Positions 21,909 to 45,112 of a stretch of DNA of 64,000 bases are shown here, piece by piece. The notes beneath the pieces were generated by a model. It made no database searches, was not told where the DNA came from, and saw only the letters and a program-made list of their open reading frames with translations. Position 1 is the stretch's first letter; each line of letters starts with the position of its first letter. Position numbers and translations under genes: made by a program. The DNA comes from an uncultured Hyphomicrobiales bacterium. Lineage in GTDB: Bacteria > Pseudomonadota > Alphaproteobacteria > Rhizobiales > Beijerinckiaceae. Location of the stretch: contig CAIZGQ010000073.1 of assembly GCA_903932565.1 (NCBI GenBank), positions 699-64,698 on the forward strand, in the 5' to 3' direction.

Positions 21909-22036
21909 CGAAGACGAAGCCTGCCGAGAAACCCAAGCGTGGCCGACCCAAGATCGTCGGCCCGCGTCCTTGGGAGGTTAAGGGCATGTCCCGCCGCACA
22001 TGGTATCGCCGCAAGAAGCTGGGGTTGGAGAAATGA
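21905..22036 (+). CDS. small basic HTH-like protein (43 aa)
   Basis: MTKTKPAEKPKRGRPKIVGPRPWEVKGMSRRTWYRRKKLGLEK. Coupled on both sides. Confidence 0.4.
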   Translation: MTKTKPAEKPKRGRPKIVGPRPWEVKGMSRRTWYRRKKLGLEK

Positions 22037-26411: not shown

Positions 26412-27353
26412 ATGGCGCATCCGTATAACGAAAAGCGGGCTCACAAGGTCGAGAAAGAGCGCGTGAAGGGGCTGTGCAACGGTGGATATTCATCCGGTGG
26501 TGCAGTTGGTGATGCCAATCTTGACCAGCGCACCAACTTGCTGAAGACCGAGCAGAGCAACAACCGCATAGGCAATATGGGTCTTCCTGAGAAGGGCCGA
26601 GCCGATCGTGTGAAGCGGGCCAAGGGTGGGCGCGTGAAGCACAAGGGTGGACACAAGACCAATGTGAACGTGATCGTGGCCCCGTCCGGTGGCGACAAGG
26701 GCCCGATGGCAGGTCTGGGGCCAAAGCCCCCGATCGGCATGGCACCTCCACCGCCCCCGCCCGGTGCCATGCCGCCTCCTATGGCTGCAAAGCCTCCGAT
26801 GCCGATGCCGCCTCCGGGCGCAGGCGCTCCTCCCGGTATGCCTCCGATGCCAATGCGCAAGCGTGGCGGTCGCGTTCCGCATGATGTGGCTGAGCCGGTT
26901 CGCACTACCAAGAAGGCCGGTGAGGTCGAAAGCCGCAAGCACCGTACCGGTGGCTCCAATGACATGGGCAAGACCAAGCGAGCCGAAGGTGGCAAGGTTC
27001 CGATGCCGAAGCCCCGTCCGCAGGGCAAGGAGCCTGATGCTGATGATCTCTACGCGCCGAAGGATCTGAAGCGCCTGAGCGATCAGAACCGCGCAAAGGG
27101 TGGCAAGGTCGTTGCTGGTGCCAACGAGCGTGGCAAGACCGGCATTGGTTTCCGTCTTCCGGTCCAGCACTCAGGCAACAAGGACGACACCCAGAACATC
27201 GGTCGCAAGCCGGTGGTCACCCGCGCTACCGGTGGACCGATCTACGCCGACGGCAAAGCAGGGAAAGACATGGGCCCGAGGTTCACTGGCGGATCTAAGG
27301 GCGGCGAGGGCCGTATGGAGAAGGCCAAGAGGGCTGAGTCCACGCATGGCTGA
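26412..27353 (+). CDS. basic Gly/Pro/Lys-rich virion-associated protein
   Basis: 313 aa with a poly-Pro tract and five copies of the R-x-x-GG-[KRP]-[VI] motif. Confidence 0.6.
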   Translation: MAHPYNEKRAHKVEKERVKGLCNGGYSSGGAVGDANLDQRTNLLKTEQSNNRIGNMGLPEKGRADRVKRAKGGRVKHKGGHKTNVNVIVAPSGGDKGPMAGLGPKPPIGMAPPPPPPGAMPPPMAAKPPMPMPPPGAGAPPGMPPMPMRKRGGRVPHDVAEPVRTTKKAGEVESRKHRTGGSNDMGKTKRAEGGKVPMPKPRPQGKEPDADDLYAPKDLKRLSDQNRAKGGKVVAGANERGKTGIGFRLPVQHSGNKDDTQNIGRKPVVTRATGGPIYADGKAGKDMGPRFTGGSKGGEGRMEKAKRAESTHG

Positions 27354-28555: not shown

Positions 28556-29140
28556 ATGACGAAGTCTATGCGCGTTTCTGTTGACCCATATGAGATACCT
28601 GAGCATCTAATTCCGCCGGGAATGATCTATCAGTGGGTTTCTAAGAGATCATTCGGACAAATCGATAAACAATTCCAGACAATGCGTGATGCTGGCTGGA
28701 CCGAAGTGCCTTATGAGAGGCTGGCATCCCATTTTAAGGGAAAATATCGCAGCGAGGTCAGCGGTGTGCTGATAGGCGGTCAGACCCTCATGGAACGGAC
28801 CCGAGAGGTTTCAAAGATAGCCCGCGACAAAGAAATGGATTTCGCCAGCATCAATGCCAATTCCGGGCGAGCCATAGGAATTGACATCGTCTCGAAATTC
28901 AATCTTTCGGCGTTTGAGATTGAGACGGCGCGGAATATGAGCCTGAGTAGCTCCCAATATGCCGCATGGCGCATTAAGCAAATACAGGAAGGCCACGACC
29001 GATCCATTATTGTCGGTGGCATCAATCAGGATTTGATGTTTGCACCTGCTCCAAAGTACATGGTTCCAAAACGTCGTTGGCTGGGGTGGTTGTTCAAATT
29101 GATTTCAATGGAGACAGAGAGGGATATCTATGTCGGATGA
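28556..29140 (+). CDS. head-module protein, paralogue A
   Basis: 'LIPPGMIYQWVS...MRDAGWTEVPYERLA...GGQTLMER' is shared with ORF 30089-30769. Confidence 0.6.
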   Translation: MTKSMRVSVDPYEIPEHLIPPGMIYQWVSKRSFGQIDKQFQTMRDAGWTEVPYERLASHFKGKYRSEVSGVLIGGQTLMERTREVSKIARDKEMDFASINANSGRAIGIDIVSKFNLSAFEIETARNMSLSSSQYAAWRIKQIQEGHDRSIIVGGINQDLMFAPAPKYMVPKRRWLGWLFKLISMETERDIYVG

Positions 29141-30077
29141 GACTGAGCTGAAGATTACGATCGAACCGGATCTCGATGAAGAGGTACAGAAGGCTCCTGT
29201 AGTAGTAGAGCCGAAGAAGTCGGCAGAGCCTGCAGTCGACGAGCTCAAGACACAGGTCGAGACGCTTACAGAGGCCCGCGAGAACGAGCGGCAGCGTCGT
29301 GAGCAGGCAGAACGTCGGGCCCGTGAGTTGGAGCTCGAGGCCGATCAGGCTCGCCAGAGAGCCTCTGACAGCGATCTCAGCACCATCACAACGGCGCTCG
29401 AATCAGCCCAGACAGAGATCGAACAATCCAAGAAGGATATGCGTGCGGCCAAAGAGGCTGGCGATATCGACGCTGAGACGGATGCGCTCGATCGGCTGAC
29501 GACGGCCAAAGCCACCCTGATGCGGCTGGATGAGGCCAAAGCAGATGCCGAGGTCCGCAAGAAATCCCCACCCAAGCGAGAGCAGAAGACGGTTGATCCG
29601 GTCGAGGCCTATGCCGAAGGTCGGACGCCATCCACCGCTGACTGGATACGGAAACATCCGGAGTATGTGACGGATGCCAGCAAGAACCTCAAACTTACCG
29701 CAGCGCATTATGCGGCATTGGCTGAAGGCTATCAGGCCGCCAGTGCCAAGTATTTCCAGCACGTCGAGGAATTCTTGGGCCTGACGTCTAAGGCAGGAGC
29801 GGACGAACCGGCTCCGAAGCCAGCACCGAAGAAGGCCGCATCGGCACCCGTTGCCCCCACCGCAGCGACCGCGAATGGTGGGACGGCTCCGGACAATGCC
29901 GTCAGCCTTACGGCGAGGGAGGCTCGATCAGCCACCGACGGAACACTTGTGTGGAACTGGGATGATCCGAAAGGAAAGTTCAAGAAGGGTGATCCGATCG
30001 GTCACCAAGAGATGGCCCGCCGTAAACAGAAGATGATGGCGAGCGGCGTCTACGACAAATCGTACACCGATAGCTGA
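29130..30077 (+). CDS. scaffolding-like coiled-coil protein
   Basis: 315 aa with an acidic/basic heptad-rich N-terminal half, positioned between portal and capsid. Confidence 0.5.
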   Translation: MSDETELKITIEPDLDEEVQKAPVVVEPKKSAEPAVDELKTQVETLTEARENERQRREQAERRARELELEADQARQRASDSDLSTITTALESAQTEIEQSKKDMRAAKEAGDIDAETDALDRLTTAKATLMRLDEAKADAEVRKKSPPKREQKTVDPVEAYAEGRTPSTADWIRKHPEYVTDASKNLKLTAAHYAALAEGYQAASAKYFQHVEEFLGLTSKAGADEPAPKPAPKKAASAPVAPTAATANGGTAPDNAVSLTAREARSATDGTLVWNWDDPKGKFKKGDPIGHQEMARRKQKMMASGVYDKSYTDS

Positions 30078-30088
30078 AAGGTAATCCC

Positions 30089-30769
30089 ATGGAAGAAGAG
30101 ATCGTTAAGACCAACAGTGCCGCGAAGACAGAGGCATTGGCAAAGGCTCGAGCGGCCAAGGCTGCGAAGAAGGCAGCGGCTGCACCGGAGGAGCCCACCC
30201 GTCAGCACAAGGCAGAGCCTGAACCGGCGGAAGAGCGTGAGCATCGCATGGGTCGATCGGGCCGCATTGAGGCCACCGGTCGCGACGGTGAGGTTCTGTC
30301 CCGTGGTGCGGTGTACGTCAGGGACTCATTCGAGGTCGACAAGCCACTGATCCCGGAGGGATGGGATTATCAATGGAATAGTATTTCGATCCACGGCAAT
30401 GCCGAAGTGGTCAGGGATATGCATAATCTCATGACCCAGCAGGGTTGGCGACCCGTACCGGCTGAACGATATGCCGGAACGCTGCTGCCGCGCGGGGCCA
30501 AGGGAAATATTGTTCGTGGTGGCGTCATTCTCGAGGAGCGTCCTACGGTTCTTGGAAATGAGGCCCGTCAGGAAGAGCTTAATGCGGCTCGCAAGTTGAT
30601 CAGCGACCGCAACGAATCACTCAAGCTGGCTGGTGTGAAGAAGAACATGCCCGACGGGTTCGAGATGGGCGGTCAGTACAAGGGCACTGGCGGCGACATC
30701 AGGATGTCGATCGATAAAGGTTTAGATATCCCTGCGCCCGGATACACGCTTGCCAAGCCGGGAGAGTAA
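30089..30769 (+). CDS. head-module protein, paralogue B
   Basis: 'LIPEGWDYQWNS...MTQQGWRPVPAERYA...GGVILEER'. Confidence 0.6.
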   Translation: MEEEIVKTNSAAKTEALAKARAAKAAKKAAAAPEEPTRQHKAEPEPAEEREHRMGRSGRIEATGRDGEVLSRGAVYVRDSFEVDKPLIPEGWDYQWNSISIHGNAEVVRDMHNLMTQQGWRPVPAERYAGTLLPRGAKGNIVRGGVILEERPTVLGNEARQEELNAARKLISDRNESLKLAGVKKNMPDGFEMGGQYKGTGGDIRMSIDKGLDIPAPGYTLAKPGE

Positions 30770-30780
30770 GTCACAAAAAA

Positions 30781-30807
30781 GCCCGCAGACTAATTGAGCC
30801 TGCGGGC
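30781..30807. terminator. bidirectional-looking terminator hairpin
   Basis: AAAAAA-GCCCGCAG-n11-CTGCGGGC-agTTTcg, between the head genes and the sugar island. Confidence 0.45.
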
Positions 30808-30887
30808 AGTTTCGAGAGGAAGTGCGTAGCTCTCCAGAGCGCCGCAGCCTCTCTCTAGCACACCTTAACACCTACCGGAAGTATCCT

Positions 30888-31796
30888 ATGCCTAAGCTGG
30901 TAATATCGCTCGCAACCCGTGGGCGTCCGCAGCAGGTTATTGACACCGTCAGGCGATCATTTGTGAATTGGACGCATCCGGATACGCGGATGTACGTTAT
31001 GATCGATGACGATGATAAAGCGACGGCAGATGCGCTTGTTGCGTCTGGTATTCCCAACGATTCTAGTGGTCGAATTGTTCCATGGGTTGCGCCACGCGAG
31101 GACACTATCGCGGAGAAATGGAATAGATGCCTGAAAGAACCGGCTGACGCCTATCTGATTGCCGCGGATGACGACCCGTATGTCTCCAAGGGCTACGATA
31201 TGGCCATCCTCGAGGCCGCAGAGCGCTTCCCAGATGGCATCGGATACGTCTATGGCCACCTCGCCAATCTATCCTTCACCGGGGCTGTAGCGGTCACCCG
31301 CAAGATGGCGGATATGATGGGCTATATCTTCCCGCCCTATTTCCCGTACTGGTTTGTCGATCACTGGACCGATGACGTGGCGCGGATCACCGGGCGCATA
31401 TCGTTTGCCAATATCCAGACAGATCAATCAAAGGCTGGCAAGACGCAGGAGATGCGGGAGCCGGGATGGTGGGCGACGTTCTTTGACGCCTGTTACCTGA
31501 TGAGGCGAGCTCAGGCTCACGCCATCATCGATTCGCCTGAATTTGTTGGTGAGGAGTGGCAGAAGAAGTTGCTCAAGGCCAATCATCCGCTGATCGAGGT
31601 TCGATCACGAATGCTGAACGGGTCGGTCAGGGCACAAGACAAGCAGTTGTCCGGATGGTCCGGACTGAGCAATGCAGACGACAGATACAAGCGCGTGAAG
31701 CAGCGAGCGATTGACATGCTGCCTCACGCTCTTGGAGATTACGGCATGCCAGAAGCAGAGCAGGTCATGTTTCGCAAGTATCTAGGTGTCAAGTGA
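30888..31796 (+). CDS. glycosyltransferase (GT-A-like)
   Basis: 'LVISLATRGRP...MYVMIDDDD' and a second acidic 'AADDDPY'. ATG 30888 chosen within ORF 30822-31796. Confidence 0.6.
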   Translation: MPKLVISLATRGRPQQVIDTVRRSFVNWTHPDTRMYVMIDDDDKATADALVASGIPNDSSGRIVPWVAPREDTIAEKWNRCLKEPADAYLIAADDDPYVSKGYDMAILEAAERFPDGIGYVYGHLANLSFTGAVAVTRKMADMMGYIFPPYFPYWFVDHWTDDVARITGRISFANIQTDQSKAGKTQEMREPGWWATFFDACYLMRRAQAHAIIDSPEFVGEEWQKKLLKANHPLIEVRSRMLNGSVRAQDKQLSGWSGLSNADDRYKRVKQRAIDMLPHALGDYGMPEAEQVMFRKYLGVK

Positions 31797-31974
31797 GATC
31801 CACGACGAACGATTCAACGACGTTACATTCAAGACAGACGAATGATCGCAGGTCGTAGCTATTCGATATGGTGTCGATGCTATCAAGCATCATCCTATCT
31901 CCACAGGTCATGCAAGTAAGGTTTGGCATGTCCATAAGACGAAAGATGAGTTCTGGATAGGCATGGGTACTCAT
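31789..31974 (-). CDS. small zinc-ribbon protein on the opposite strand
   Basis: GGAGGGAATTGAT-ATG. MSTHAYPELIFRLMDMPNLTCMTCGDR...FVCLECNV (CxxC...CxxC). Confidence 0.45.
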   Translation of the reverse strand: MSTHAYPELIFRLMDMPNLTCMTCGDRMMLDSIDTISNSYDLRSFVCLECNVVESFVVDLT

Positions 31975-32092
31975 ATCAATTCCCTCCGTTTTGTTGGTCG
32001 AGATAGACCAATCTTGCAGTAGGCCTATGGTTCCGTGGATCAAGTGCAATATTGACCATGATTGAAAATAAAGACGTATTAGGTAAGGACGG

Positions 32093-33460
32093 GTGTCCAT
32101 GATTGATCGGCCTAATAAGACGGTACTATGCCACGGATGCTTCGATTTGCTGCATCTTGGTCATATCCAGCATCTGCAGCAGGCGGCAGAGATGGGCAGC
32201 ACCCTCACGGTCAGCGTCACCGCGGATGAATTCGTCAACAAGGGTGTAGGTCGTCCGCATTTCACGGCAGAGCAGAGAGCGGAAGCGCTGCGATCGCTAT
32301 CATGCGTTGATTCCGTGGTGATCAATCGATCCCCGAATGCCGTTCCTGTCATCAAGACGCTACGACCGGACATCTACTGCAAGGGGATTGACTACTCTGG
32401 AGATCCGTCGCCGGGATTGATGGAAGAGATTGATGCGGTCGGCCACATTGGTGGCAAGGTGTGCTTCACCAATACCCGCAAGATGTCATCCAGCCGACTG
32501 ATCAACGAGGACAAATTCAGCCGCGAGACGATGCAGTATCTCGATCGCCTCAAGGATAGCGGGGCGTTGGAAGCCATTCTCCGAGCATTCGACGATGCGG
32601 ATAAGAAGACGATCCTATTCGTCGGAGAGAGCATCCGCGATGTCTATCTCTATGTGCAGGGGCTGGGGCGAGCATCCAAGGAGCTCATGCTGGCGACCGT
32701 TGTCACTGGGCAAGAGAGTTTCGACGGTGGAGTGATCGCTGCATCGCGCCAAGGCGAATGGAAACACTCAGCACTTCTCACATCCTCAGAATATATGGTG
32801 AAAACCCGCTATGTTGACGCTGACTTTCATCGCAAAATATTTGACGTGTATGGGCAGCGTTCGCTGGTCTTGGATGAAAATGAGCGGGAAGACTTCAGAG
32901 CGAAGCTGACTGACGCCGTGATGCATCATGACGTGGTGATCACGCTGGACTTTGGGCACGGACTGCTTGGTCCGCTCGAGCGCTTTATCATCAGCGAGCA
33001 TTCGCCTTGGCTGGCGGTCAACTCCCAGACCAATGCCGGAAACTACGGGTTCAATCCTGTCACCAAGTACATGAAGCCGCATTACGTCTGCATCGATGAG
33101 CCGGAAGTGCGTCTGGCCATGCAGGATCAGGTCGGCAATCTACAGAAGGTCGTGCAGAACCTGCAGACAAGTCAGCGATGCTTCCGATATCTCATCACCC
33201 GTGGTCGCAATGGATCTGCTTGGCTGCGCTCAGGCGTCTATGGCGAGGCTCCTGCGCTGTCATATGGTGGCGTTGATACGATGGGAGCCGGTGACGCAGT
33301 GATGGCTGTAACGGCTCCGCTGGCCTCCACAGGGCTGGACATGGAGCTAGTGGCATTCGTCGGCAACATCGTGGGGGCATTGAAGATTGGAACCGTAGGG
33401 CATCGAACCCACGTCAAGCGCAACGAGATCATACGAACGGTGGAGGCGTTACTAGCGTGA
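32093..33460 (+). CDS. bifunctional sugar-1-phosphate nucleotidyltransferase / PfkB sugar kinase (HldE-like, reversed domain order)
   Basis: The N-terminus 'CHGCFDLLHLGHIQHL...KGVGRPHFTAEQR...VDSVV' resembles RfaE domain II. The C-terminus carries the PfkB 'DTMGAGDA'. Confidence 0.8.
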   Translation: MSMIDRPNKTVLCHGCFDLLHLGHIQHLQQAAEMGSTLTVSVTADEFVNKGVGRPHFTAEQRAEALRSLSCVDSVVINRSPNAVPVIKTLRPDIYCKGIDYSGDPSPGLMEEIDAVGHIGGKVCFTNTRKMSSSRLINEDKFSRETMQYLDRLKDSGALEAILRAFDDADKKTILFVGESIRDVYLYVQGLGRASKELMLATVVTGQESFDGGVIAASRQGEWKHSALLTSSEYMVKTRYVDADFHRKIFDVYGQRSLVLDENEREDFRAKLTDAVMHHDVVITLDFGHGLLGPLERFIISEHSPWLAVNSQTNAGNYGFNPVTKYMKPHYVCIDEPEVRLAMQDQVGNLQKVVQNLQTSQRCFRYLITRGRNGSAWLRSGVYGEAPALSYGGVDTMGAGDAVMAVTAPLASTGLDMELVAFVGNIVGALKIGTVGHRTHVKRNEIIRTVEALLA

Positions 33461-33996
33461 GAGACAGTTTTAGGGATCTGCATTCAGCATTGGACTTCAT
33501 GCAATGCGAGGACAACGCCTTTGATCAGGTAAAGAACCTGATCAACATGAGCGGGTTTGGCAAGGCGAGGCTGTTCTTTGTGGGGAATGGTGGATCGGCT
33601 GCGATCGCATCGCACATGGCCACTGACTGGATGAAGAATGGCGACTTCCCCACATTCTGTTTCAACGACGGCCCGCTGCTGACGTGCATCACCAACGATC
33701 TCGGCTATGAGAACAGCTTCTGGCTCCCGATCGACATGCATGGCCAGATTGGAGACGTGTTGTTTGCCATCTCGAGCTCAGGAAAGTCACCCAACATCAT
33801 TTCCGCGGTGAATGCTGCTCGAGGAAAGCGCATGAACGTCGTGACATTGTCTGGGTTCAAGAGCGACAATCCGTTGCGCAGTATGGGGCAGGTCAACTTC
33901 TATGTCCCGTCCGATAACTACGGCACTGTCGAGATCGCCCACTTGGCGATCCTGCATTCCATCCTCGACGAGGTGATGGCAGATGAACGCAAGTGA
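33457..33996 (+). CDS. gmhA: SIS-domain sedoheptulose-7-phosphate isomerase-like
   Basis: 'FFVGNGGSAAIASHMATD' and 'AISSSGKSPNI' are GmhA/DiaA signatures. Confidence 0.8.
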   Translation: MRDSFRDLHSALDFMQCEDNAFDQVKNLINMSGFGKARLFFVGNGGSAAIASHMATDWMKNGDFPTFCFNDGPLLTCITNDLGYENSFWLPIDMHGQIGDVLFAISSSGKSPNIISAVNAARGKRMNVVTLSGFKSDNPLRSMGQVNFYVPSDNYGTVEIAHLAILHSILDEVMADERK

Positions 33997-34570
33997 CCTG
34001 ATTGCCTTTGAAGACGAGATGACCGCTCTATTCGAGCAAGGTCACATCAAAGCGCCTTTGCATTTGGCTGGTGGGAATGAGGAGAATCTCATTGAGATAT
34101 TCAAAGAGATCGACAAAGAAAACGACTGGGTGTTGGCGTCATGGCGTAGTCACTACCATTGTCTTCTCAAGGGGGTGCCAGCCGGAGATATCCGCAACTC
34201 CATCATCAACGGTCATTCGATATCGCTTTGCTTCCCAGAATATAAGGTTCTCTCATCTGGAATTGTTGGCGGCATCTGTCCGATTGGGGTTGGAATCGCC
34301 GCTGGTCTTAAGCGACAGAAGCAAGCGGGGAAAGTCTGGATCTTCTGTGGCGATATGACTTCGTTGACGGGAATTTTTAATGAATCTTTGCGCTACTCTC
34401 TGGGCAACGATCTTCCAATAGAGTTTGTAGTAGAAGGTAATGGATTGTCTGTTGCAACCGATACACAAGCATCATGGGGATGCGATTACACAGGACGTCC
34501 AATTGCTCGTGGTTACAAATACAAGTTGACCAAGCCTCATGTAGGAATAAACAAATGGGTAAAATTCTGA
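33983..34570 (+). CDS. TPP-dependent enzyme, E1 alpha-like small subunit
   Basis: ThDP/Mg motif 'GDMTSLTGIFNESLRYSLGNDLPIEFVVEGNG' (GDG-x-NN type). Only 195 aa. Confidence 0.65.
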   Translation: MNASDLIAFEDEMTALFEQGHIKAPLHLAGGNEENLIEIFKEIDKENDWVLASWRSHYHCLLKGVPAGDIRNSIINGHSISLCFPEYKVLSSGIVGGICPIGVGIAAGLKRQKQAGKVWIFCGDMTSLTGIFNESLRYSLGNDLPIEFVVEGNGLSVATDTQASWGCDYTGRPIARGYKYKLTKPHVGINKWVKF

Positions 34571-35007
34571 TACCTGAAACAGTTTTGGCCTATACCGCGG
34601 GTATTATTGATGGTGAAGGATGGATTGGCATTTGTAAAACATACGCCAAGGGAAGAAAAACTCTTGGTAAAATATACCCACATCGCATGTTTCAGATTTC
34701 CGTTTCAAATTCTATAGAATCGATGATTGATTATCTGCATATCAATTTTGGTGGCGTAAAGACTTTCGGGCATAGGCCAAATCGAAAGCCATATTATAGA
34801 TGGACCATAACATCACGAAGTGCCGAAGATTTTTTAAGGATGATCTATCCATATTTGGTTGCCAAACGAGATCAGGCAGAAATTTCATTTCGATTCAGGG
34901 AGACATTCCGTAAAAGAAATCAATGGAGTCGCACGGTTCCTCCGGAAGATCTGGCTGTTCGTGAGGAGTGCTATAAATCATTGCGAGACTTAAAGAGAGC
35001 CGCATGA
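34555..35007 (+). CDS. LAGLIDADG homing endonuclease (free-standing)
   Basis: 'LAYTAGIIDGEGWI'. AT-rich relative to its neighbours. Overlaps both flanking genes. Confidence 0.8.
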   Translation: MGKILIPETVLAYTAGIIDGEGWIGICKTYAKGRKTLGKIYPHRMFQISVSNSIESMIDYLHINFGGVKTFGHRPNRKPYYRWTITSRSAEDFLRMIYPYLVAKRDQAEISFRFRETFRKRNQWSRTVPPEDLAVREECYKSLRDLKRAA

Positions 35008-35555
35008 GCTACTACAGCGAATTATGCCTAGCCATGAACCTGCTTGCTGACGATGAGCGCACGGTGTTCATCGGTCAGGGCGTGGGGAACGCTGGCACCA
35101 CGATGTCCGGCACGTTTGAGGATATCCCTGATCACAAGAAGATTGAATTCCCGGTGGCAGAGGATTTGCAGATGGGGGTGTGTACCGGGATGTCGCTGAC
35201 CGGGGTGATTCCAATTTGCGTATTCCCCCGTTGGAACTTCATGCTGTGTGCTGCGAACCAGCTTGTTAATCATTTGGACAGATTGAGCCTGTTCTCCGAC
35301 TATCGGCCCAAGGTCATCATTCGGGTGGCTACCCCGAGCGTGGCACCATTCTATCCGGGCCCGCAGCACGACGATGACTTCTCAAGGGCGTTCAGATCGA
35401 TGCTTCGGACAACGGACATTGTCTCGCTGGTCGAGGAGGAAGACATCGTGGCCCAGTACGACAAGGCGCTTCATTCGCCACGGTCGACCATACTTGTTGA
35501 GTACACGGACGCTTATGCGGGAGACATCGCTAAGGCAAAGGGTGAGGACAAATGA
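35004..35555 (+). CDS. TPP-dependent enzyme, E1 beta-like (pyrimidine-binding) small subunit
   Basis: 'FPVAEDLQMGVCTGMSLTGVIPICVFPRWNFMLCAANQLVN'. 183 aa with no C-terminal transketolase domain. Confidence 0.65.
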   Translation: MSYYSELCLAMNLLADDERTVFIGQGVGNAGTTMSGTFEDIPDHKKIEFPVAEDLQMGVCTGMSLTGVIPICVFPRWNFMLCAANQLVNHLDRLSLFSDYRPKVIIRVATPSVAPFYPGPQHDDDFSRAFRSMLRTTDIVSLVEEEDIVAQYDKALHSPRSTILVEYTDAYAGDIAKAKGEDK

Positions 35556-35764
35556 AAACCGTGCAAGACGAGGTTTACGAAGCGCTACGGGTTGACGTCG
35601 GACAAACGCCTGCCCAAATTGCAAGGCAGGTTGAGTATGGGTCGCTGATCAGTGTTCGTCATGCCTTGCGGGAATTAGCCAAAGAAAAGCGCTGTTGGCA
35701 CGAAGGCGAAGATATGTTCCGGATCTACTACAAGGTGGAAATGTCAGATGACAATCTTGCGTAA
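35552..35764 (+). CDS. small winged-helix-like protein
   Basis: 70 aa, 'QTPAQIARQVEYGSLISVRHALRELAKE'. Confidence 0.45.
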   Translation: MKTVQDEVYEALRVDVGQTPAQIARQVEYGSLISVRHALRELAKEKRCWHEGEDMFRIYYKVEMSDDNLA

Positions 35765-35948
35765 GAACACGGTCCTCGTTCAGTTTGCGGACAACATCCC
35801 GAGTGCGGCTCAATCATCTGCAATGATGGAACTGGAGAAGATCCTGCGGCGCATGACCGGCATGGAGATCGAGGTCTTCAAGGAAGTGATGGGCGACGAC
35901 AGTAAATTGCGCGTTCAGATGACGCCAGAGGAGCGAAACAAACTATGA
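35748..35948 (+). CDS. hypothetical 66-aa protein upstream of the radical SAM gene
   Basis: Coupled ORF with no recognisable family. Confidence 0.45.
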   Translation: MTILRKNTVLVQFADNIPSAAQSSAMMELEKILRRMTGMEIEVFKEVMGDDSKLRVQMTPEERNKL

Positions 35949-37093
35949 CCAGCTCAGTTCCTGAACTGATCAACCACATTGTGACCGGTTCAGCGGTCCA
36001 TGATCTGCAGCTAGACGGTAGCAAGGTTGGATGGTGGCGTGATCGTGTTGAGGCGTGGGACCGTGGAGAGCGCATTGCACCGGTCACCATGGACGTAGCT
36101 TGGACGAGGAAATGCAACGCTGCATGCTCGTTCTGTTACGCCCAGATGCAAGCGAGCGATGGTGGCGAGATCACCGAGCGTCACGCAATGGAGTTCTTGG
36201 AAGATGCTGCAGCAATCGGGGTCAAGGGCGTCAGTCTCATATCTGACGGTGAATCTACCGTCGTCCCATTTTACGAGCGATCCATACAGTACGCAGCCTC
36301 GCTTGGTCTGCAGATTGGTATCGGCACAAACGGTGTGCGACTCAAGCGTAAGGTGCTGGAGGCCATACTGCCCCACCTGTCGTACCTCCGTTTTAATTTC
36401 AGTGCAGGAGATCTAGATCGATACAAGCAGATCATGGGGCTGAAGGAGAGGGACTATTGGCAAGTCATTCAGAACGTCAAGGATGCGATGGAGATCAAGC
36501 GCAGGGACAATCTAGATGTGACGATCAACATGCAGATGGTCACGATGCCGGATTTCCACGACCAGATAATGCCACTGGCACATTTAGCCAAGGAAATCAG
36601 ACCGGACTATCTGATCTACAAGCATTGCGCGGACAACGCCGATGGGACTCTTGGGATCGATTACCGACAGTACGACGCCCTTTTTGATACGTTCCGGCAA
36701 GCAGAAGCCATGGGCGACGATGAGTTTCGCGTCGTTGTGAAGTGGTCCCGCCTCGAGGACGAAGGCAAGCGCCACTATAGCCGCTGTTTCGGGCCTCCGT
36801 TCATCACTCAGATGTCAGGCAATGGATTGATTGCGCCGTGTGGGTTCTTGTTCAACGAGAAGTACAAGGCGTTTCACATCGGCAACATCACCAAGACCCG
36901 CTTTCGCGAGATTTTTGCCTCCGATCGCTATTGGGAGGTGATGAACTATCTGGCGAGCGAGTTCTTCAATCCGCAGAAGCGTTGTGGGCCAAATTGCCTG
37001 CAGACCAACACCAATGATTGGCTATTCAAGTACAAGACCGGTCAGGTTGATTTCCCAACATCCCCAGCACCTCCGCACATGGGCTTCCTGTGA
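35945..37093 (+). CDS. radical SAM enzyme with a twitch/partial-SPASM-like C-terminal domain
   Basis: 'CNAACSFC' (Cx3Cx2C). The C-terminus is 'RCFGPP...NGLIAPCG...IGNI...FREIF...RCGPNC'. Confidence 0.85.
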   Translation: MTSSVPELINHIVTGSAVHDLQLDGSKVGWWRDRVEAWDRGERIAPVTMDVAWTRKCNAACSFCYAQMQASDGGEITERHAMEFLEDAAAIGVKGVSLISDGESTVVPFYERSIQYAASLGLQIGIGTNGVRLKRKVLEAILPHLSYLRFNFSAGDLDRYKQIMGLKERDYWQVIQNVKDAMEIKRRDNLDVTINMQMVTMPDFHDQIMPLAHLAKEIRPDYLIYKHCADNADGTLGIDYRQYDALFDTFRQAEAMGDDEFRVVVKWSRLEDEGKRHYSRCFGPPFITQMSGNGLIAPCGFLFNEKYKAFHIGNITKTRFREIFASDRYWEVMNYLASEFFNPQKRCGPNCLQTNTNDWLFKYKTGQVDFPTSPAPPHMGFL

Positions 37094-37186
37094 AGTGGAA
37101 GGTTCCATACGAGCGCTACAGCATGGGTGACTGGCCCAACAAGCCTGCAGTAGATAATGCGTACCAACAACTGAGAGAGATCCTAA

Positions 37187-37861
37187 ATGGCACTTACGCA
37201 AAACAGCACGAAGTTCTGGCACCCAGATCAGAAGATGATCGACTGGCTGACAGAGAAGAAGATCCCGGCAGACGCCAAGGTTCTTGAGATCGGACCCGGT
37301 ACTGTCCCATTCAAGCGGGCAAATGCCTACGTTGATTTCGTCGACATTCCCGACCTCGAGAATTTCACCAAGGCAGATGGCACGGGCAAGCTGCCGTATG
37401 GCGACAAGGAATTCGACTTCATCTACTGTCGGCATGTGCTGGAGGATTCGTGGAATCCATTCACGCTTTGCGAAGAGATGTCTCGGGTTGGCAAGGCTGG
37501 CTACATCGAAACGCCATCCCCGATCGCTGAATTGTGCCGTGGCATCGATGGTTCATCCCCGCCGTTCCGTGGCTACCACCATCACCGTTGGATCGTGTGG
37601 ACCGCGAACAAAGAACTACGGTTCGTCACCAAGTATCCGCTGATCGAGTATCTTCGGTTCAAGGAAGACGAGATCGACGAGTGGCTGAAGCAACAGCGCT
37701 ATTGGAACACACATTACCTGTGGGAAGATCGCGTCAACTATGTCCATCGACAGAGCCCGATGGATTTCAATATCCCCACTGACTTTGCCTTGATGCTCGC
37801 AGATGCTATGCAGGCGTCGAAGACATATACTGATGATCTATACTTTCCGATAAACGCATGA
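37187..37861 (+). CDS. class I SAM-dependent methyltransferase
   Basis: Motif I 'VLEIGPGT' and an acidic 'VDFVD' post-I. Confidence 0.75.
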   Translation: MALTQNSTKFWHPDQKMIDWLTEKKIPADAKVLEIGPGTVPFKRANAYVDFVDIPDLENFTKADGTGKLPYGDKEFDFIYCRHVLEDSWNPFTLCEEMSRVGKAGYIETPSPIAELCRGIDGSSPPFRGYHHHRWIVWTANKELRFVTKYPLIEYLRFKEDEIDEWLKQQRYWNTHYLWEDRVNYVHRQSPMDFNIPTDFALMLADAMQASKTYTDDLYFPINA

Positions 37862-38198
37862 ACCAACGCGAAGCAAAACTGAGCCATGAGACGCTCATTC
37901 GTCTTCTGGATTACGATCCGGAGACGGGCGTCTTTATCGCGTCAAGACCGACAACAGAATTTCCAATCTACGAGAGGCAACTCACTTACAGAATGTGTGC
38001 AATGTCAAAATAAGACGACATAACACGACTGGTTTTAAGGGCGTTACCTATCATAAATTGGCGAACAAATTCATGGCTCAAATCAGAGCCAATAGAAAAT
38101 ACATCTATCTTGGGCTCTTCAACACCCCGGAAGAGGCTCACGCAGCATATGTTGCAGCATCACAACTTCACCACGGGGAATATGGGGTAACCTACTAA
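37858..38198 (+). pseudogene. decayed HNH-AP2 homing endonuclease (internal deletion plus frame change)
   Basis: The N-terminal 'LLDYDPETGVFI' is in one frame. 'KTDNRISNLREATHLQN' plus the AP2 'TGFKGVTYHK...YLGLFNTPEEAHAAY' are in another. The HNH core is missing. Confidence 0.6.
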
Positions 38199-38965
38199 TG
38201 GCAAAGAACATTTTTATTTTCGTCCCAGCCTTCGGCCAGATCATTTCTGCCACGACGTTTCTAACCACGCATGGTCTTCGTCAGTTGCTGGCATCGAAGG
38301 GTGTTGGTGGCGGCATTTCCACGCTGTCGTTCCCTGACATTGCAGAGTTGCGATCGATGGCGACCACGGTCTGGTACGATACGATGCCGGATGCTTCCCA
38401 TCTGCTGTTCATTGATGCGGACATGGGTTTCCCGCCTGAGTTGGTGACGGATATGCTGATGTTTGATGAGCCGCTGGTTGGAACCGTTTACCCACAGCGC
38501 AAGTTGCCACTGTCTTGGGCCGGATCTGGCACAGGTACGGCTACTACGGAACGCCGTGGTGACTTTATGCTGGTCGAGGGCGTTGGTATGGGCTGTACGT
38601 TGATTGCCCGTGAAGTCATCACGAAGATGATCGACAAGTTCCCAGAGCTCATAGACACCCGCCTTCAGTTACATCCTGCGGGTGAGACTATGCGGCAGAT
38701 GGGAACGAATCGGCTCTTGAGGTTCTATGAAAAGATGGATCTTCCGGAGCGTGGTCTGATCTCTGAAGATCTTTCCTTCTGCATCCGCTGGCAGCAGTGC
38801 GGTGGCAAGACATGGGCGGCGATCGGTCACAAGATGAGCCATGTTGGTCCGTTCGATTATTCCGGGCGCTATCTGGATGTGATCGAGGCGCAGGCTAACG
38901 CGCCTGCAATGGAGGCTGTTACACCGATGGATGATGCTGCTATTTCGGCACTTCCAGCGGCATAA
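38198..38965 (+). CDS. glycosyltransferase (GT2-like, DxD)
   Basis: 'IFIFVPAFGQ', 'LLFIDADMGF' and 'SEDLSFCIRW'. Confidence 0.7.
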   Translation: MAKNIFIFVPAFGQIISATTFLTTHGLRQLLASKGVGGGISTLSFPDIAELRSMATTVWYDTMPDASHLLFIDADMGFPPELVTDMLMFDEPLVGTVYPQRKLPLSWAGSGTGTATTERRGDFMLVEGVGMGCTLIAREVITKMIDKFPELIDTRLQLHPAGETMRQMGTNRLLRFYEKMDLPERGLISEDLSFCIRWQQCGGKTWAAIGHKMSHVGPFDYSGRYLDVIEAQANAPAMEAVTPMDDAAISALPAA

Positions 38966-39280
38966 GATCCGGCGGTACCTCCCCCTGCTTCAAGTGTCGC
39001 GGACAGGGAACACACGTCTCTGATGAAGTGCCTGCCGCCGACGGTCGCAAGGCCGTAAGGATGGGTGAATCGGAGAAATGCGGCGTGGTCTGCGCGTGAC
39101 TTGACAATTCGGTGAAGTTCGCGCAGATTGCCGTACCTGATGTTCCCTCCACGCGCTGTGGAGGTAGAGCGGACAGAGACGGGCGTAGTCGCAGTCTCAG
39201 TCATTTGTCACCGCAAGCTGCGGGACTAAGGTTTCCAATCCGGCAAGCGGCTGGACGAGCCCAATCTCGGTGAGCTTGTC

Positions 39281-39865
39281 ATGGCTAATACGCAGGCCCA
39301 ATTTGGGTTTCAGCATTTCGGATATCTTCAGGGCGGTGCGCCTGACTACCAGCAGAGCAAGGGACTGATCCAGTCGACCTTCTCGACCAAGATTTACTTT
39401 GGTGACCCCGTCATCAAGTCTGCGGCCTCCCAATACATGACCCTGATGACCTCCACCACGACAGCGGTGTGGGGTATTTTTGTGGGCTGTACCTATACGC
39501 CGACTGGCAGTGCTCCCGTCTGGTCGCCTTGGTGGCCCGGTGCTGCGGCTGCGGACGCCACTGGCTATGTCATCGATGCTCCGAATGCTCTGTTCAAGGT
39601 TGCGGCTCTTCTGACCGCAGTTCCGGCGACGGCGATCGGGCAAAACATTGGTTTCTCTACCGGCGCAGGCGGCACCACCGTCGGCGGCGGGTTCTCGACG
39701 TACACTGTCGATCAGTCGACGCTAACAACCAGCAATGGTTTTCCATTCCAAGTCTATTCGATGTATCCGGGCGTGGGTAACGGGTCCGACACGACGACCA
39801 ACTACAATTGGGTCATCGTATCGTTCGCGAACCAGCGCTTCCGGACGTTGACTGGCGTGGCATAA
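39281..39865 (+). CDS. virion structural protein directly upstream of the capsid gene (possible decoration/cement)
   Basis: 194-aa ORF. The call rests on position only. Confidence 0.5.
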   Translation: MANTQAQFGFQHFGYLQGGAPDYQQSKGLIQSTFSTKIYFGDPVIKSAASQYMTLMTSTTTAVWGIFVGCTYTPTGSAPVWSPWWPGAAAADATGYVIDAPNALFKVAALLTAVPATAIGQNIGFSTGAGGTTVGGGFSTYTVDQSTLTTSNGFPFQVYSMYPGVGNGSDTTTNYNWVIVSFANQRFRTLTGVA

Positions 39866-39880
39866 TAGGGAGCATGACCA

Positions 39881-40795
39881 ATGCCTATTTCTCTCGCTAG
39901 TATACGTTCTGAACTGCTCCCCGGTCTGTTCGATGTTCGGGGTTCGTATGACATGATCCCGCGTCAGTGGGACAAGGTCTTCAAAACCCACAAATCGGCA
40001 ATGGCCGTTGAGCGTTCGACGCAGATGGCGTTCGTTGCGCTGCCGTTCCTTAAGGATGAAGGTGCGGCTACGCAGTTCGACAATCAGTCTGGCGAGCGAT
40101 TCACTTGGGCATTCGTGCATATCGAGGTGGCGTTGGGCTACGCGATTACACGCAAAGCCATCGATGACAATCTGTACAAGGCTCAGTTCAACCCCACCAA
40201 CCTGAAACTCCAAGAGGCGTTCGCGCAGTTCAAGGAAATTCAGGCCGCGAACATCTTCAATCTGGGCACGACCTACAACAGTGCGCAGGTTGGTGACGGT
40301 GTGGCGTTCTTCTCGACGTCGCATCCGTATGATGGCGGTACTTGGGCCAACACCTCGACGGTTCCGAAGTCACTCAACGAGTCGACGCTGCTTGCGGACA
40401 TGACCAACGTCCGTGCCCAGTTTGTCAACGAGCGTGGCCTCCGCATTCTGGCTCGAGCCCGTCGCCTGATCGTTCCGCCGAATCTTGAAGCGGTTGCGAT
40501 CCGCCTGACCAAGACTGAGCTTCGTCCCGGCACTGCGGACAACGACGTCAACGCGATCCTATCTCTCTCAGGTGGTCTGCCGGAAGGCTTCATCGTGCTG
40601 GACTTCCTGACGTCGAACTTCGCTTGGTTCCTGACGACCAACATCGAAGGCCTGATCCATATGCTTCGTATTCCTTACGAAAGCGATATGTGGGTCGACA
40701 ACATCACCGACAACCTGTTGGTGAAGGCCTACGAGCGTTATTCGTTCGGCATCAACGATCCTCGCGCCGCTTGGGGCGAGTTCCCGACTGCGTAA
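39881..40795 (+). CDS. major capsid protein (HK97-fold type)
   Basis: 304 aa. Sequence character and position are typical of Mu gpT-like capsid proteins. Confidence 0.7.
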   Translation: MPISLASIRSELLPGLFDVRGSYDMIPRQWDKVFKTHKSAMAVERSTQMAFVALPFLKDEGAATQFDNQSGERFTWAFVHIEVALGYAITRKAIDDNLYKAQFNPTNLKLQEAFAQFKEIQAANIFNLGTTYNSAQVGDGVAFFSTSHPYDGGTWANTSTVPKSLNESTLLADMTNVRAQFVNERGLRILARARRLIVPPNLEAVAIRLTKTELRPGTADNDVNAILSLSGGLPEGFIVLDFLTSNFAWFLTTNIEGLIHMLRIPYESDMWVDNITDNLLVKAYERYSFGINDPRAAWGEFPTA

Positions 40796-40821: not shown

Positions 40822-42078
40822 ATGGCTGAAACACTGCTTCGCGGCCCCGGTATTAGCATCGGGTCATTGATGGACGGGCGCGTCGAGCCATTCGACGGCC
40901 CCTCCATTAGCTATCAAGGCGATATGGTCCCTGACCCGCGTCAGTCCCCAGCGAACAAGGATGGGTTGAGCCCCGGTGTGGTCAAGGGGTTCTTCAATAA
41001 CCCGTACTTTGTGCTGATTGACGTTGTCCCACAGGCCAACAGTACGACTACGATTGCTGCATCTCAGGTTCCGTCGACTACTGCTGGCGTTGCTTTGGCT
41101 CTGACTACCGCGGTTCTCGGCACTGCGGCTGGCGTTCAGGTCTGGACACCCGGCATCACCATCTACAACGCCAGCACTGGCGGTACGGCCTCTGTCGGAG
41201 CGATCGACTTCGGTTTCACCACCGGTACTACTGCGGCCAACTCCACGACGGTTGTTGTTGTAGATAACTCGCAGTTTACGATTGGCCAGTGGATCGTCAT
41301 TGGTGGCGCTGGATCTGGCTCTGCCACCAACGTGCAATTGTTCACTCAGGTACAGAGCAAATCGACCAACACCACGGTAATCACGGTTTCCCCTGCTGCC
41401 GCGACGGCATTGAACAATGCTCCGATCGGTCAGGGTAATCTGTATAATACGTTACTGCCGCCAGCTACGCAGTTCGGGCCTGCTGCAGCGTCTGCCAATG
41501 CGTCAGAACCTTACAGGCTGGCTGGTTTCGGTCTTACCTTCGATTCCTTGCAGGGCTCTTGCCGCGCCTTGAGTGTTGCGGCGGCATCGGTTGGTTCGGG
41601 AACCACGACGCTGCTGGCCTCTGGTTATGATATCTACGGCTACCCGATGACGGAATCTATCACTGCGAACGGCACTACCGTGGTCAACGGCAAGAAGGCA
41701 TTCAAGTACGTTGCCAGCGTTGTGACTGCTGGTACGGCGGCAACTTCCGGTGCGCCAGCCGCGGTATCTGTTGGTATTTCCGACGTGTTCGGCGTAAATA
41801 TTCGCTCCGACAAGTGGGAATATCTGAACATCTTCTGGAATGGTGGCTTTGCCATCAACAACACCGGCTGGACCAAGGCGCTTTCGACAACTTCTAGCTC
41901 CACGACCGTTGACGTTCGTGGTACACAGAACGTGTCGACGGCATTGACCGGTACTGGTGTCGCGGCACCGACTGATGGTGTTCGTCGTTTGACGATCATG
42001 ATGTCGGTTCCGGTTCAGAACATGATCAACGCCACTCCGCTCAACAGTTCCACCCTCTTCGGCACGACACAGGCATAA
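40822..42078 (+). CDS. Thr/Ser/Ala-rich virion structural protein
   Basis: 418-aa ORF following the capsid gene. Confidence 0.6.
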   Translation: MAETLLRGPGISIGSLMDGRVEPFDGPSISYQGDMVPDPRQSPANKDGLSPGVVKGFFNNPYFVLIDVVPQANSTTTIAASQVPSTTAGVALALTTAVLGTAAGVQVWTPGITIYNASTGGTASVGAIDFGFTTGTTAANSTTVVVVDNSQFTIGQWIVIGGAGSGSATNVQLFTQVQSKSTNTTVITVSPAAATALNNAPIGQGNLYNTLLPPATQFGPAAASANASEPYRLAGFGLTFDSLQGSCRALSVAAASVGSGTTTLLASGYDIYGYPMTESITANGTTVVNGKKAFKYVASVVTAGTAATSGAPAAVSVGISDVFGVNIRSDKWEYLNIFWNGGFAINNTGWTKALSTTSSSTTVDVRGTQNVSTALTGTGVAAPTDGVRRLTIMMSVPVQNMINATPLNSSTLFGTTQA

Positions 42079-44423: not shown

Positions 44424-45112
44424 CATCCTCCGGAACTTATACATTCAGCCTGTCAAACAGCGAGGGCATTCTCGCTGCCTTTGAACGTATCGGAATGGAC
44501 CCGTCAGAACTGAAGCAACGTCACTTCATGACGGCTCGACGGGAATTGAATCTTCTCAACGGTGAATGGTCGAACAAGCAGGTCAACCTGTGGGAGGTGA
44601 CGCTCAGCTCGATCGCACTGGTGTCTGGAACGGCCACCTACACGCTTCCGGCCAGCGTGGTGATGGTTCTGGATGCATACTACAGCACCAATCAGGGCAC
44701 CTCTACGCAGACTGACCTGTTCATGAATCCGATGAGCCGGGATGAGTATGCTGGATATCCTCAGAAGCAGACACCGGGCCAACCTACAATGTACTGGTTC
44801 AGTCGCCAGATCACGCCCACGCTGACGATCTATCCCGTCTACAATCTCAGCACCACGAACTATATTAATTATTACGCCTGTACCCAGATCCAAGACGCAA
44901 ACCTGCCAAGTGGGTCTACTCCAGACATTCCGTTTTTATGGTATGATGCCATGGTAGCGGGGATGTCCCACCGTCTCGCTCGAGTGTTCAAGCCAGAGTT
45001 GGAAGACAAGCGTAAAGTTGATGCCAAGGAAGCGTGGGAAACCGCGGCTTCCCAGAACATAGAGAACACCAATTTGACCATCACCCCTAATCTTGGGTCG
45101 TACTACAGATGA
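44420..45112 (+). CDS. putative head-tail adaptor / virion protein
   Basis: 230-aa ORF. The pattern resembles podovirus adaptor-like proteins. Low certainty. Confidence 0.45.
   Translation: MTSSGTYTFSLSNSEGILAAFERIGMDPSELKQRHFMTARRELNLLNGEWSNKQVNLWEVTLSSIALVSGTATYTLPASVVMVLDAYYSTNQGTSTQTDLFMNPMSRDEYAGYPQKQTPGQPTMYWFSRQITPTLTIYPVYNLSTTNYINYYACTQIQDANLPSGSTPDIPFLWYDAMVAGMSHRLARVFKPELEDKRKVDAKEAWETAASQNIENTNLTITPNLGSYYR

Follow-up and report, generated by a model that had tools for sequence, protein, structure and literature searches.

A putative heptose-type sugar and glycosyltransferase island within the head module of an uncultured tailed phage

Gene content of the island

We analyzed a 64,000-nucleotide (nt) stretch of phage DNA (hereafter the window; contig CAIZGQ010000073.1 of assembly GCA_903932565.1, deposited under an uncultured Hyphomicrobiales bacterium) and focused on a gene island at positions 30888–38965. 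The plus-strand genes of this island lie between head-assembly genes and the genes for a decoration-like protein and the major capsid protein. They encode two glycosyltransferases (here GT1 and GT2), a nucleotidyltransferase–kinase fusion, a sugar phosphate isomerase, two subunits of a thiamine diphosphate (ThDP) enzyme, a radical S-adenosylmethionine (SAM) enzyme and a methyltransferase. Judging from its gene content and position, the island is most likely a late-expressed glycosylation operon that carries its own sugar supply. An earlier reading, made from the DNA letters without database searches (the sequence-only reading), had given a similar inventory, and we found all of its protein-coding elements at or near the positions it listed, except that a proposed zinc-ribbon open reading frame (ORF) has neither a homologue nor a family match.

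The upstream flank (29130–30769, plus strand) encodes a scaffold-like coiled-coil protein and a head-module protein (30089–30769) without a match in Pfam, PHROG or NCBIfam, and is syntenic with MW202675 and with relatives in IMG/VR. The downstream flank (39281–40795, plus strand) encodes a decoration-like protein, which was labeled from its position only and had no match in Pfam, PHROG or NCBIfam, and the major capsid protein (phrog_371, Phage_capsid_4), which is 60% identical to the capsid protein of MW202675 and 40% identical to that of Pelagibacter phage HTVC023P. Homologues of the flanking genes were recorded 100–300 nt apart in MW202675, HTVC023P and dozens of IMG/VR contigs, and as adjoining or approximately 1 kb apart in MW202675 and HTVC023P, in agreement with the earlier placement of the island inside the capsid-assembly module. 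Stop and start codons overlap from the nucleotidyltransferase–kinase gene to the radical SAM gene and again between the methyltransferase gene and GT2. The glycosyltransferase genes adjoin the structural genes and share their orientation, and in three related loci (L007, L008 and L011) the start of GT1 overlaps the stop of the preceding head gene.

GT1 (30888–31796, plus strand) is a GT-A glycosyltransferase that resembles the GT2 family and has a helical domain at its C terminus, and GT2 (38198–38965, plus strand) is a GT-A glycosyltransferase with an invariant D73-x-D75 motif. GT1 matched PHROG 14945 ('glycosyltransferase', E = 8e-8) and GT2 matched phrog_1574 (E = 3e-15). Neither protein matched Pfam or NCBIfam, sequence-profile searches of the PDB were empty for both, and a profile–profile comparison of GT1 with GT2 gave no match; the fold was therefore obtained by structure prediction. 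The AlphaFold models of GT1 and GT2 (predicted local distance difference test scores of 91.3 and 81.5, respectively) each had a clear GT-A fold. In Foldseek searches, the best matches of GT1 were TarP, TarS, RmlT, PcManGT and WrtF (E = 2e-8 to 1e-5, with template modeling (TM) scores of approximately 0.5). GT2 was nearest to A197 of Sulfolobus turreted icosahedral virus (STIV; E = 1e-8), and also matched human LH3/ColGalT1, Mnn9, A64R of Paramecium bursaria chlorella virus 1 (PBCV-1) and mimivirus R699. The acidic motifs of GT1 comprise D40xDD43 and a DDD run at residues 94–96, of which D95 and D96 were invariant in 40 close homologues and D94 in a 12-sequence set that included relatives carrying glycosyltransferase genes only. 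Both proteins accordingly combine the GT-A fold with a DxD-type metal/nucleotide-sugar motif. The sequence-only reading had proposed two such enzymes, the second with a DxD motif; both assignments hold, and the start of GT1 is probably at 30888 and not at 30822. GT2 is the best-conserved gene of the island and is the only island gene in L033–L035. In L035 (7608–9206), this single GT2 homologue is fused to an FkbM-type methyltransferase and lies directly upstream of the decoration-like and capsid genes, an arrangement that recalls the glycosyltransferase–methyltransferase architecture of A064R.

A fusion of an N-terminal nucleotidyltransferase domain (HxGH) with a C-terminal PfkB sugar kinase domain (DTxGAGD) is encoded at 32093–33460 (plus strand). 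Profile searches recovered both domains (CTP_transf_like, E = 2.8e-15; PfkB, E = 6e-9), as expected from the cytidylyltransferase-fold and PfkB fusion described previously. The best NCBIfam models were rfaE_dom_II (100 bits, cut-off 181.5) and rfaE_dom_I (55 bits, cut-off 345), and the domain order is the reverse of that in HldE. In sequence searches of the PDB, the top match of the nucleotidyltransferase domain was the ethanolamine-phosphate cytidylyltransferase ECT (3elb), followed by HldC (5x9q) and an RfaE-domain-II-like protein (3glv), and the nearest match of the kinase domain was HldA (4e84). The following gene (33457–33996, plus strand) encodes a GmhA-like SIS ketose/aldose phosphate isomerase. 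GmhA, which the sequence-only reading had also named, was the nearest family in both NCBIfam (gmhA, TIGR00441, 84 bits against a cut-off of 209) and the PDB, where the 13 best sequence matches were all phosphoheptose isomerases. In an alignment read by eye, the isomerase retained the phosphate-binding SSSGKS and equivalents of His61, Asp94 and His180. The isomerase, kinase and nucleotidyltransferase were nearest to the heptose families GmhA, HldA/HldE and HldC, respectively. We infer the identity of the sugar and of the nucleotide from these matches, which lie well below the equivalog cut-offs.

The two ThDP subunits are miniatures. The alpha subunit (33983–34570, plus strand; 195 aa) is a PP domain with the GD...N ThDP motif, and the beta subunit (35004–35555, plus strand; 183 aa) is a PYR domain with the catalytic Glu. 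The alpha subunit matched E1_dh (E = 1.5e-10), the E1alpha model of pyruvate dehydrogenase (PDH; 59 bits) and phrog_34187 (E = 1.5e-40), and was 29–32% identical to the full-size E1alpha proteins of the cellular clusters described below; a phmmer search of the PDB gave no match. The beta subunit matched Transket_pyr and PDH E1beta, and in the PDB it matched 1ik6 (E = 4e-7), with 'PVAED' aligned to 'PLNEG'. The previous designation as E1-alpha/E1-beta-like subunits was supported by profile for both proteins, with the correction that they are truncated and lack a Transketolase_C domain. Since phrog_34187 (405 positions) matched both halves, we considered that the endonuclease between them had split a single ThDP gene or was part of an intron or intein. 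This idea was rejected, as every relative, with or without the endonuclease, encodes alpha and beta as distinct genes in different reading frames. That endonuclease therefore lies between two genes and not within one. With 195 and 183 aa, the two subunits may rank among the smallest E1-type ThDP enzymes, with a possible use in biocatalysis.

Islands that lack the E1-like pair carry an acetolactate-synthase-type ThDP enzyme of approximately 600 aa directly after the radical SAM gene (TPP_enzyme_N/M/C; 354–374 bits against a cut-off of 538), and the two types are mutually exclusive across islands. By gene content, the ThDP step is core to the island yet replaceable. Just two mechanisms have been described for two-carbon sugar branches, namely those of the PDH-like AviB1/AviB2 and of the thiamine pyrophosphate flavoprotein YerE (PMC4425429; see also PMC4753412). 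The swap of exactly these two ThDP types is, in our analysis, the strongest argument that a two-carbon unit would be joined to the sugar, and the most likely donor is pyruvate. The C2-branched, methylated higher sugar that the sequence-only reading had suggested gains independent support from this mutual exclusion, and the sugar itself is a prediction. The miniature alpha/beta pair was also observed in unrelated low-GC phage contigs (L014–L020; for example, L014, 8460–11132), where it directly follows a B12-binding radical SAM gene in a sugar island of at least 13 kb. This second island contains RmlC-like, DegT, GHMP-kinase, nucleotidyltransferase and several glycosyltransferase genes and adjoins a class II ribonucleotide reductase. 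The partnership of radical SAM and ThDP enzymes therefore recurs.

The radical SAM enzyme (35945–37093, plus strand) matched Pfam Radical_SAM and SPASM, and the SAM-dependent methyltransferase (37187–37861, plus strand) matched Methyltransf_11 (E = 6.5e-6); both had been recognized in the sequence-only reading. The methyltransferase gene is kept in most islands. In addition to CX3CX2C (C57/C61/C64), the radical SAM enzyme has four more invariant cysteines (C281, C299, C347 and C351), which indicates one auxiliary cluster of the twitch or partial-SPASM type. It is not a seven-cysteine, two-cluster SPASM protein, although Pfam SPASM scored 25 bits. The best PDB sequence match was SkfB; PqqE and several NCBIfam peptide-maturase models also matched. 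The CX3CX2C motif, the four-cysteine auxiliary site and the CX17C spacing are shared with the twitch/SPASM enzymes BtrN, DesII and BlsE, but there is no close sequence kinship with them, and the best matches are generic (a tungsten-cofactor maturase model and NirJ). A 66-aa protein without cysteine (35748–35948, plus strand) is 46–56% identical in every island-bearing locus and is encoded directly upstream of the radical SAM gene, except in L007, L008 and L010, where insertions lie between the two genes. This protein matched no Pfam, PHROG or NCBIfam family.

Related phage loci and a cellular counterpart

A nucleotide search of GenBank phages with positions 30000–40000 was empty, and tblastn searches with the nucleotidyltransferase–kinase, GT2 and radical SAM proteins gave distant, uncharacterized matches only; none of the GenBank phages thus carries the island. 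Literature searches also returned no description of this gene combination, as the sequence-only reading had supposed. In IMG/VR, we found a clade of uncultured phages that carry the island at the same site (at least 9 distinct contigs).

A capsid-anchored survey of 80 loci revealed a graded series. Loci with a capsid identity of ~60–80% contained no island genes, and the usual gap between the flanking genes was 100–300 nt. At a capsid identity of 86–88%, loci carried GT2 only (L033–L035) or GT1 and GT2 only (L030 and L032), and at 88–94% they carried the full island. The island genes are 46–90% identical across the clade, similar to the scaffold-like and decoration-like genes, and the capsid protein alone is unusually conserved. 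From the graded series, together with a divergence like that of the flanking genes, it therefore appears that the island is ancestral to the clade and was built stepwise, glycosyltransferases first. The description of the island as 'inserted' in the sequence-only reading is misleading, as the comparison points to stepwise build-up and inheritance within the clade and not to a recent insertion. The same slot in relatives also takes HNH endonucleases, a C5-methylase, an RNA ligase, a Ro60/TROVE-vWA protein, a cupin and a DUF1330 protein; the Ro60/TROVE and vWA protein lies between GT2 and the decoration-like gene in L004 (18814–20118).

We further scanned 185,579 species genomes using an alignment of the radical SAM protein, and found 15 cellular loci (L114–L128) whose radical SAM proteins are 47–51% identical. 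These loci belong to metagenome-assembled genomes (MAGs) of Leptospirales, Geobacter, Verrucomicrobiota, Elusimicrobia, Omnitrophota, Thermoplasmatota and DPANN archaea, that is, to seven phyla. Many of them contain the same nucleotidyltransferase–kinase fusion, 33–36% identical over its full length and with the same domain order, and many also contain an SIS isomerase, full-size PDH-like E1alpha/beta subunits, a second, paralogous radical SAM gene and a GT2-family transferase. The E1alpha/beta subunits come close to genuine pyruvate dehydrogenase E1 (326 bits, cut-off 394), and the cellular radical SAM orthologue shows weak profile similarity to DesII and BlsE. The clusters include two small membrane proteins (e.g. 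L119, 3933–12111). By eye, GmhB-like ORFs were seen near the clusters, and sialic/legionaminic-type genes adjoin that of L119. No curated NCBIfam model covers the cellular radical SAM enzymes or the membrane proteins. GT1, GT2 and the 66-aa protein have no homologues in the cellular clusters and are phage-specific. The shared set of nucleotidyltransferase–kinase, SIS, E1 and radical SAM genes therefore suggests a common origin, the biosynthetic core of the phage deriving from, or sharing ancestry with, an uncharacterized cellular surface-glycan module. GT2 alone may have come first, using host sugar nucleotides, followed by GT1 and later by biosynthetic and tailoring genes from such a module.

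Proposed pathway and its acceptor

From family membership and gene content, we propose a pathway of eight steps. The SIS isomerase would convert a ketose phosphate, most likely sedoheptulose 7-phosphate, into an aldose phosphate, which the PfkB domain would then phosphorylate at the anomeric position. A host GmhB-type phosphatase would take off the distal phosphate, and the N-terminal nucleotidyltransferase domain would yield a nucleoside diphosphate (NDP)-heptose. The radical SAM enzyme, for which a single auxiliary cluster is indicated, like that of BtrN-type dehydrogenases, would create a carbonyl or radical site on the sugar, to which the ThDP enzyme would join a two-carbon unit (most likely from pyruvate), so that a branched or extended sugar would result. 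After methylation by the methyltransferase, GT1 and GT2 would pass the sugar or sugars to an acceptor made alongside the head proteins. Candidate acceptors are the decoration-like protein, the capsid protein and a 418-aa Ser/Thr-rich protein (40822–42078) that has no match in Pfam, PHROG or NCBIfam. The last was dropped as a co-occurring acceptor, as it is also present in relatives without the island.

The first half of this pathway follows the logic of the ADP-L-glycero-beta-D-manno-heptose pathway (ketose phosphate to aldose phosphate to bisphosphate to NDP-sugar), with an SIS isomerase nearest to GmhA, a PfkB kinase nearest to HldA and a HIGH-motif nucleotidyltransferase near HldC. However, two active-site residues of the isomerase are substituted. 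Moreover, with GmhB and HldD missing, all scores under the cut-offs and the domain order of the fusion reversed, the island as read from its genes is not a member of the canonical ADP-heptose pathway. In the second half, both ThDP types that occupy the slot of the island correspond to those of YerE (yersiniose) and of AviB1/AviB2 and Pau11/Pau12 (eurekanate, paulomycose) (PMC4425429, PMC4753412). The phage E1 subunits differ from these in being miniature, no 4,6-dehydratase or ketoreductase accompanies them, and the predicted substrate is a heptose and not a 6-deoxyhexose. It thus also falls outside the known YerE and AviB systems, in which a dehydratase and a reductase are present. As a whole, the island resembles an ADP-heptose route coupled to the tailoring of branched sugars and to a viral glycosylation cassette.

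The reading that we tentatively favor, with a confidence a little short of probable, is that a tailored sugar of the NDP-heptose type is made by the phage and attached to a virion head protein at a late stage of infection. The head protein is favored because of the position among head genes, co-expression, and the state in which GT2 alone stands directly upstream of the decoration-like and capsid genes. Several results weigh against this reading. All heptose-family scores are far under the curated equivalog cut-offs, and the isomerase carries two substitutions in the alignment read by eye (E65 to D and Q172 to E). Among the island genes, profile searches found no HAD phosphatase that could act as GmhB, as the sequence-only reading had noted in assigning that step to the host, and no short-chain dehydrogenase/reductase that could act as HldD. 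The host is probably an alphaproteobacterium, as suggested by a homologue of the GcrA cell-cycle regulator at 22000–22476 (PF07750, 98.6 bits), and many alphaproteobacteria have no heptose in their lipopolysaccharide, which makes a supply of GmhB by the host uncertain. The island also has no 4,6-dehydratase or ketoreductase, unlike known branched-sugar pathways, and in L011 the SIS and methyltransferase genes are missing from the island. Neither NCBIfam nor the PDB offered a close characterized relative of the radical SAM enzyme, whose oxidant role is assigned by analogy. Ser/Thr content, NxS/T sequons and alignments of the three candidate acceptors did not differ among relatives with the full island, with glycosyltransferase genes only or with neither. 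Finally, the closest likeness of GT1 is to glycosyltransferases of wall teichoic acid, and GT-A folds like that of A64R have also been reported for DNA glycosyltransferases (bioRxiv 10.1101/2023.12.21.572611).

Several viral systems bear on the proposed transfer to the virion. As with PBCV-1 A064R, STIV A197, mimivirus R655/R699 and the glycosyltransferases of mycobacteriophages, the glycosyltransferase genes lie beside structural genes, and the GT2 fold matches A197, A64R and R699. However, the TM-scores are only 0.3–0.57. Virion glycosylation of phages has been documented mainly in mycobacteriophages, where it is fed by host sugar nucleotides, and we know of no mycobacteriophage glycosylation system with its own sugar-nucleotide pathway. 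The analogy with protein O-heptosylation by TibC and AAH, drawn in the sequence-only reading, is weak, as these are not known to be GT-A enzymes. Transfer of heptose to DNA by phage genes and virion glycosylation in mycobacteriophages and giant viruses are already known; what is undescribed is the gene combination, the position in the head module, the stepwise series, the pairing of a radical SAM enzyme with swapped ThDP types, and the corresponding module in cellular genomes.

The most specific form of this reading, namely that a branched (C-acetyl/hydroxyethyl), O-methylated heptose sugar, made by an undescribed route, coats the capsid of a tailed phage with a Gram-negative host through two GT-A transferases, is doubtful. 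In that route, the radical SAM enzyme would replace the usual 4,6-dehydratase, and either of the two interchangeable ThDP types would add the branch. If true, it would provide a bacterial-virus counterpart of the autonomous capsid glycosylation in chloroviruses and mimiviruses and reveal the function of a widespread, uncharacterized cellular glycan module. The stepwise progression from a single glycosyltransferase to a full sugar operon would show how viruses assemble autonomous glycosylation machinery, with a bearing on phage immunogenicity, stability and host-range engineering. The combination of a radical SAM enzyme with interchangeable ThDP types, which recurs in phage islands and in the MAG clusters of seven phyla, suggests that higher or branched sugars are made by a route that has yet to be described.

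We also considered the possibility that the same sugar pathway serves a polymer of the host envelope (lipopolysaccharide, capsule, exopolysaccharide or another surface glycan), which we regard as unlikely. If the envelope were modified at a late stage, newly made phages might no longer bind to cell debris, or rival phages might be shut out. Such a role would fit the fold of GT1, which is nearest to TarP (prophage-encoded), TarS and RmlT, that is, to cytoplasmic glycosylation of wall polymers, as well as the surface-glycan setting of the homologous cellular module, whose loci also encode membrane proteins and a GT2-family transferase, and the large sugar islands of marine myophages, which lie in non-structural regions. 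However, genes for a flippase, a polymerase, an initiating transferase or any membrane protein, whether of the GtrA/GtrB type or another, are missing from the island, the cellular clusters contain no homologue of GT1 or GT2, and no integrase was seen in the scanned ORFs; moreover, the genes are embedded among, and translationally coupled to, head genes. TarP, the glycosyltransferase of a Staphylococcus aureus prophage that acts on wall teichoic acid, is likewise a phage gene product and the best structural match of GT1 (E = 2e-8, TM 0.54), but the two are 11% identical, the sugar donor of TarP is UDP-GlcNAc from its host, and the phage studied here probably infects a Gram-negative bacterium. 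In addition, TarP is not known to lie in a head module.

A further alternative concerns the chemistry and would fit any acceptor. The ThDP enzyme might act first, in the manner of transketolase or DXS, to build a higher ketose phosphate, which the SIS isomerase, kinase and nucleotidyltransferase would then activate as in the GDP-octose route of lincosamides, with the radical SAM enzyme and the methyltransferase tailoring the product afterwards. A 2-ketose phosphate built with ThDP is the exact type of substrate for a GmhA-like isomerase, the E65D and Q172E substitutions hint at a non-canonical substrate, and in E1-type islands the SIS gene is immediately followed by the ThDP genes, with the radical SAM gene farther downstream; the L011 island without SIS was also counted in favor of this order. 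We nevertheless consider it quite unlikely, as the cellular E1alpha/beta subunits resemble pyruvate dehydrogenase E1 and not transketolase, a pyruvate donor would give a 1-deoxy-ketose that an aldose/ketose isomerase could not use, and the acetolactate-synthase-type replacement is located after the radical SAM gene.

Very unlikely, in our estimation, is a role in sugar hypermodification of the phage DNA just before packaging, as in clusters that build glycans on 5-hydroxymethylcytosine (5hmC), with a 7-deazaguanine derivative perhaps serving as the acceptor. The window encodes QueE (17286–17942; TIGR04508, 290 bits against a cut-off of 240) and QueD/PTPS (17879–18274) within a 7-deazaguanine region at 16696–18274, so that the phage DNA probably carries a deazaguanine modification, and the place of the island beside packaging and head genes would fit modification before packaging. 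Upstream of QueE, a 212-aa ORF (16696–17334) was DpdA-like by eye, with no family match. However, the Que genes are 13 kb away in the early region, and a QueE-based scan of viral contigs, a method that finds close relatives only, hit no island-bearing contig. Glycosylated 7-deazaguanine is not known from DNA. Phage clusters that deliver heptose to DNA as 5hmC-heptose are known; like the island, they combine a kinase and a glycosyltransferase with an enzyme of the cytidylyltransferase type, and their GT-A enzymes are similar to A64R (bioRxiv 10.1101/2023.12.21.572611). Unlike the island, these clusters contain or adjoin 5hmC-making enzymes and their heptose transferase is GT-B, whereas the island lies in the head module, and no hydroxymethylase, TET/5mYOX, JBP or other hydroxyl-acceptor enzyme was found in the scanned early-region ORFs, a scan that left out some small ORFs and the 3 kb of the 67-kb genome beyond the window. 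It is hardly credible that peptide modification, of the type seen with maturases or with ribosomally synthesized and post-translationally modified peptides, is the joint task of the radical SAM enzyme and the 66-aa protein, separate from the sugar genes. In favor of such a pair, SPASM-type enzymes are typically peptide maturases, the matches include SkfB, PqqE and maturase models, and the small conserved ORF lies directly upstream. Against it, the 66-aa protein contains no cysteine and shows no leader/core pattern, the radical SAM enzyme has the signature of a single auxiliary cluster, and its cellular orthologues occur without the small ORF inside nucleotidyltransferase–kinase/SIS/E1/GT2-family clusters.

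Island boundary, endonucleases and other features of the window

A hairpin at 30781–30807, between the head gene 30089–30769 and GT1, comprises 11 pairs, of which 8 are GC. The folding computation gave –18.6 kcal/mol (z = –3.35). The T-run is on the minus strand and the U-tract on the plus strand is weak, so that the element reads as a predicted intrinsic terminator for the minus strand; it is not kept among related loci. The terminator-like hairpin of the sequence-only reading is accordingly real as a stable structure. The putative zinc-ribbon ORF mentioned above (31789–32100, minus strand; CxxC...CxxC) had zero matches in Pfam, NCBIfam and PHROG and no counterpart in related loci, and its coding status is unverified. 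A 70-aa ORF (35552–35764, plus strand) gave nothing in Pfam, PHROG or NCBIfam, is not conserved in relatives and may be accessory or spurious.

One intact and one decayed homing endonuclease had been proposed, and both were recovered. The free-standing LAGLIDADG endonuclease (34555–35007, plus strand) occupies the gap between the ThDP alpha and beta genes. Its ORF is open from 34474, with a likely start at 34555, and it matched LAGLIDADG_1 (25.0 bits against a cut-off of 23.1) and phrog_5046 (E = 2e-22), the motif reading 'AGIIDGEG'. The gene lies in a 1-kb block with a GC content of 0.438 and is missing from the alpha/beta gap in L004, L012 and L013. The decayed HNH/AP2 endonuclease (37858–38198, plus strand) consists of two overlapping ORFs (37858–38013 and 37995–38198), which correspond to the two ends of an HNH_3 protein of 175 aa that is intact in L004. 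Exactly the HNH_3 core of that protein (residues 68–110) is missing in the window, and the second ORF, which matches its C-terminal part, is an AP2 domain (38 bits). The genome is rich in homing endonucleases, as two further HNH_3 genes in the window are intact (11330–11815, minus strand, and 45109–45621, plus strand), and, by eye, more endonuclease copies lie between the capsid gene and the next gene in relatives (L026, 10961–12106; L030, 10986–12128).

Elsewhere in the head module, the products of 28556–29140 and 30089–30769 share a domain that is ~30% identical and are paralogues on either side of the scaffold-like gene, whereas both paralogues are found downstream of it, as neighbors, in L003, L004 and L012. 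Upstream of a GroES-like head-module gene, 26412–27353 encodes a protein of 313 aa with a high content of Pro, Gly and Lys, which includes poly-proline stretches and has no family match. At the beginning of the window (127–3731), two large ORFs (916 and 313 aa) start with signal-like peptides followed by the same AYFPHG sequence and may be secreted phage proteins. The 313-aa ORF of this pair is weakly metalloprotease-like (NF038122, 71 bits against a cut-off of 80).

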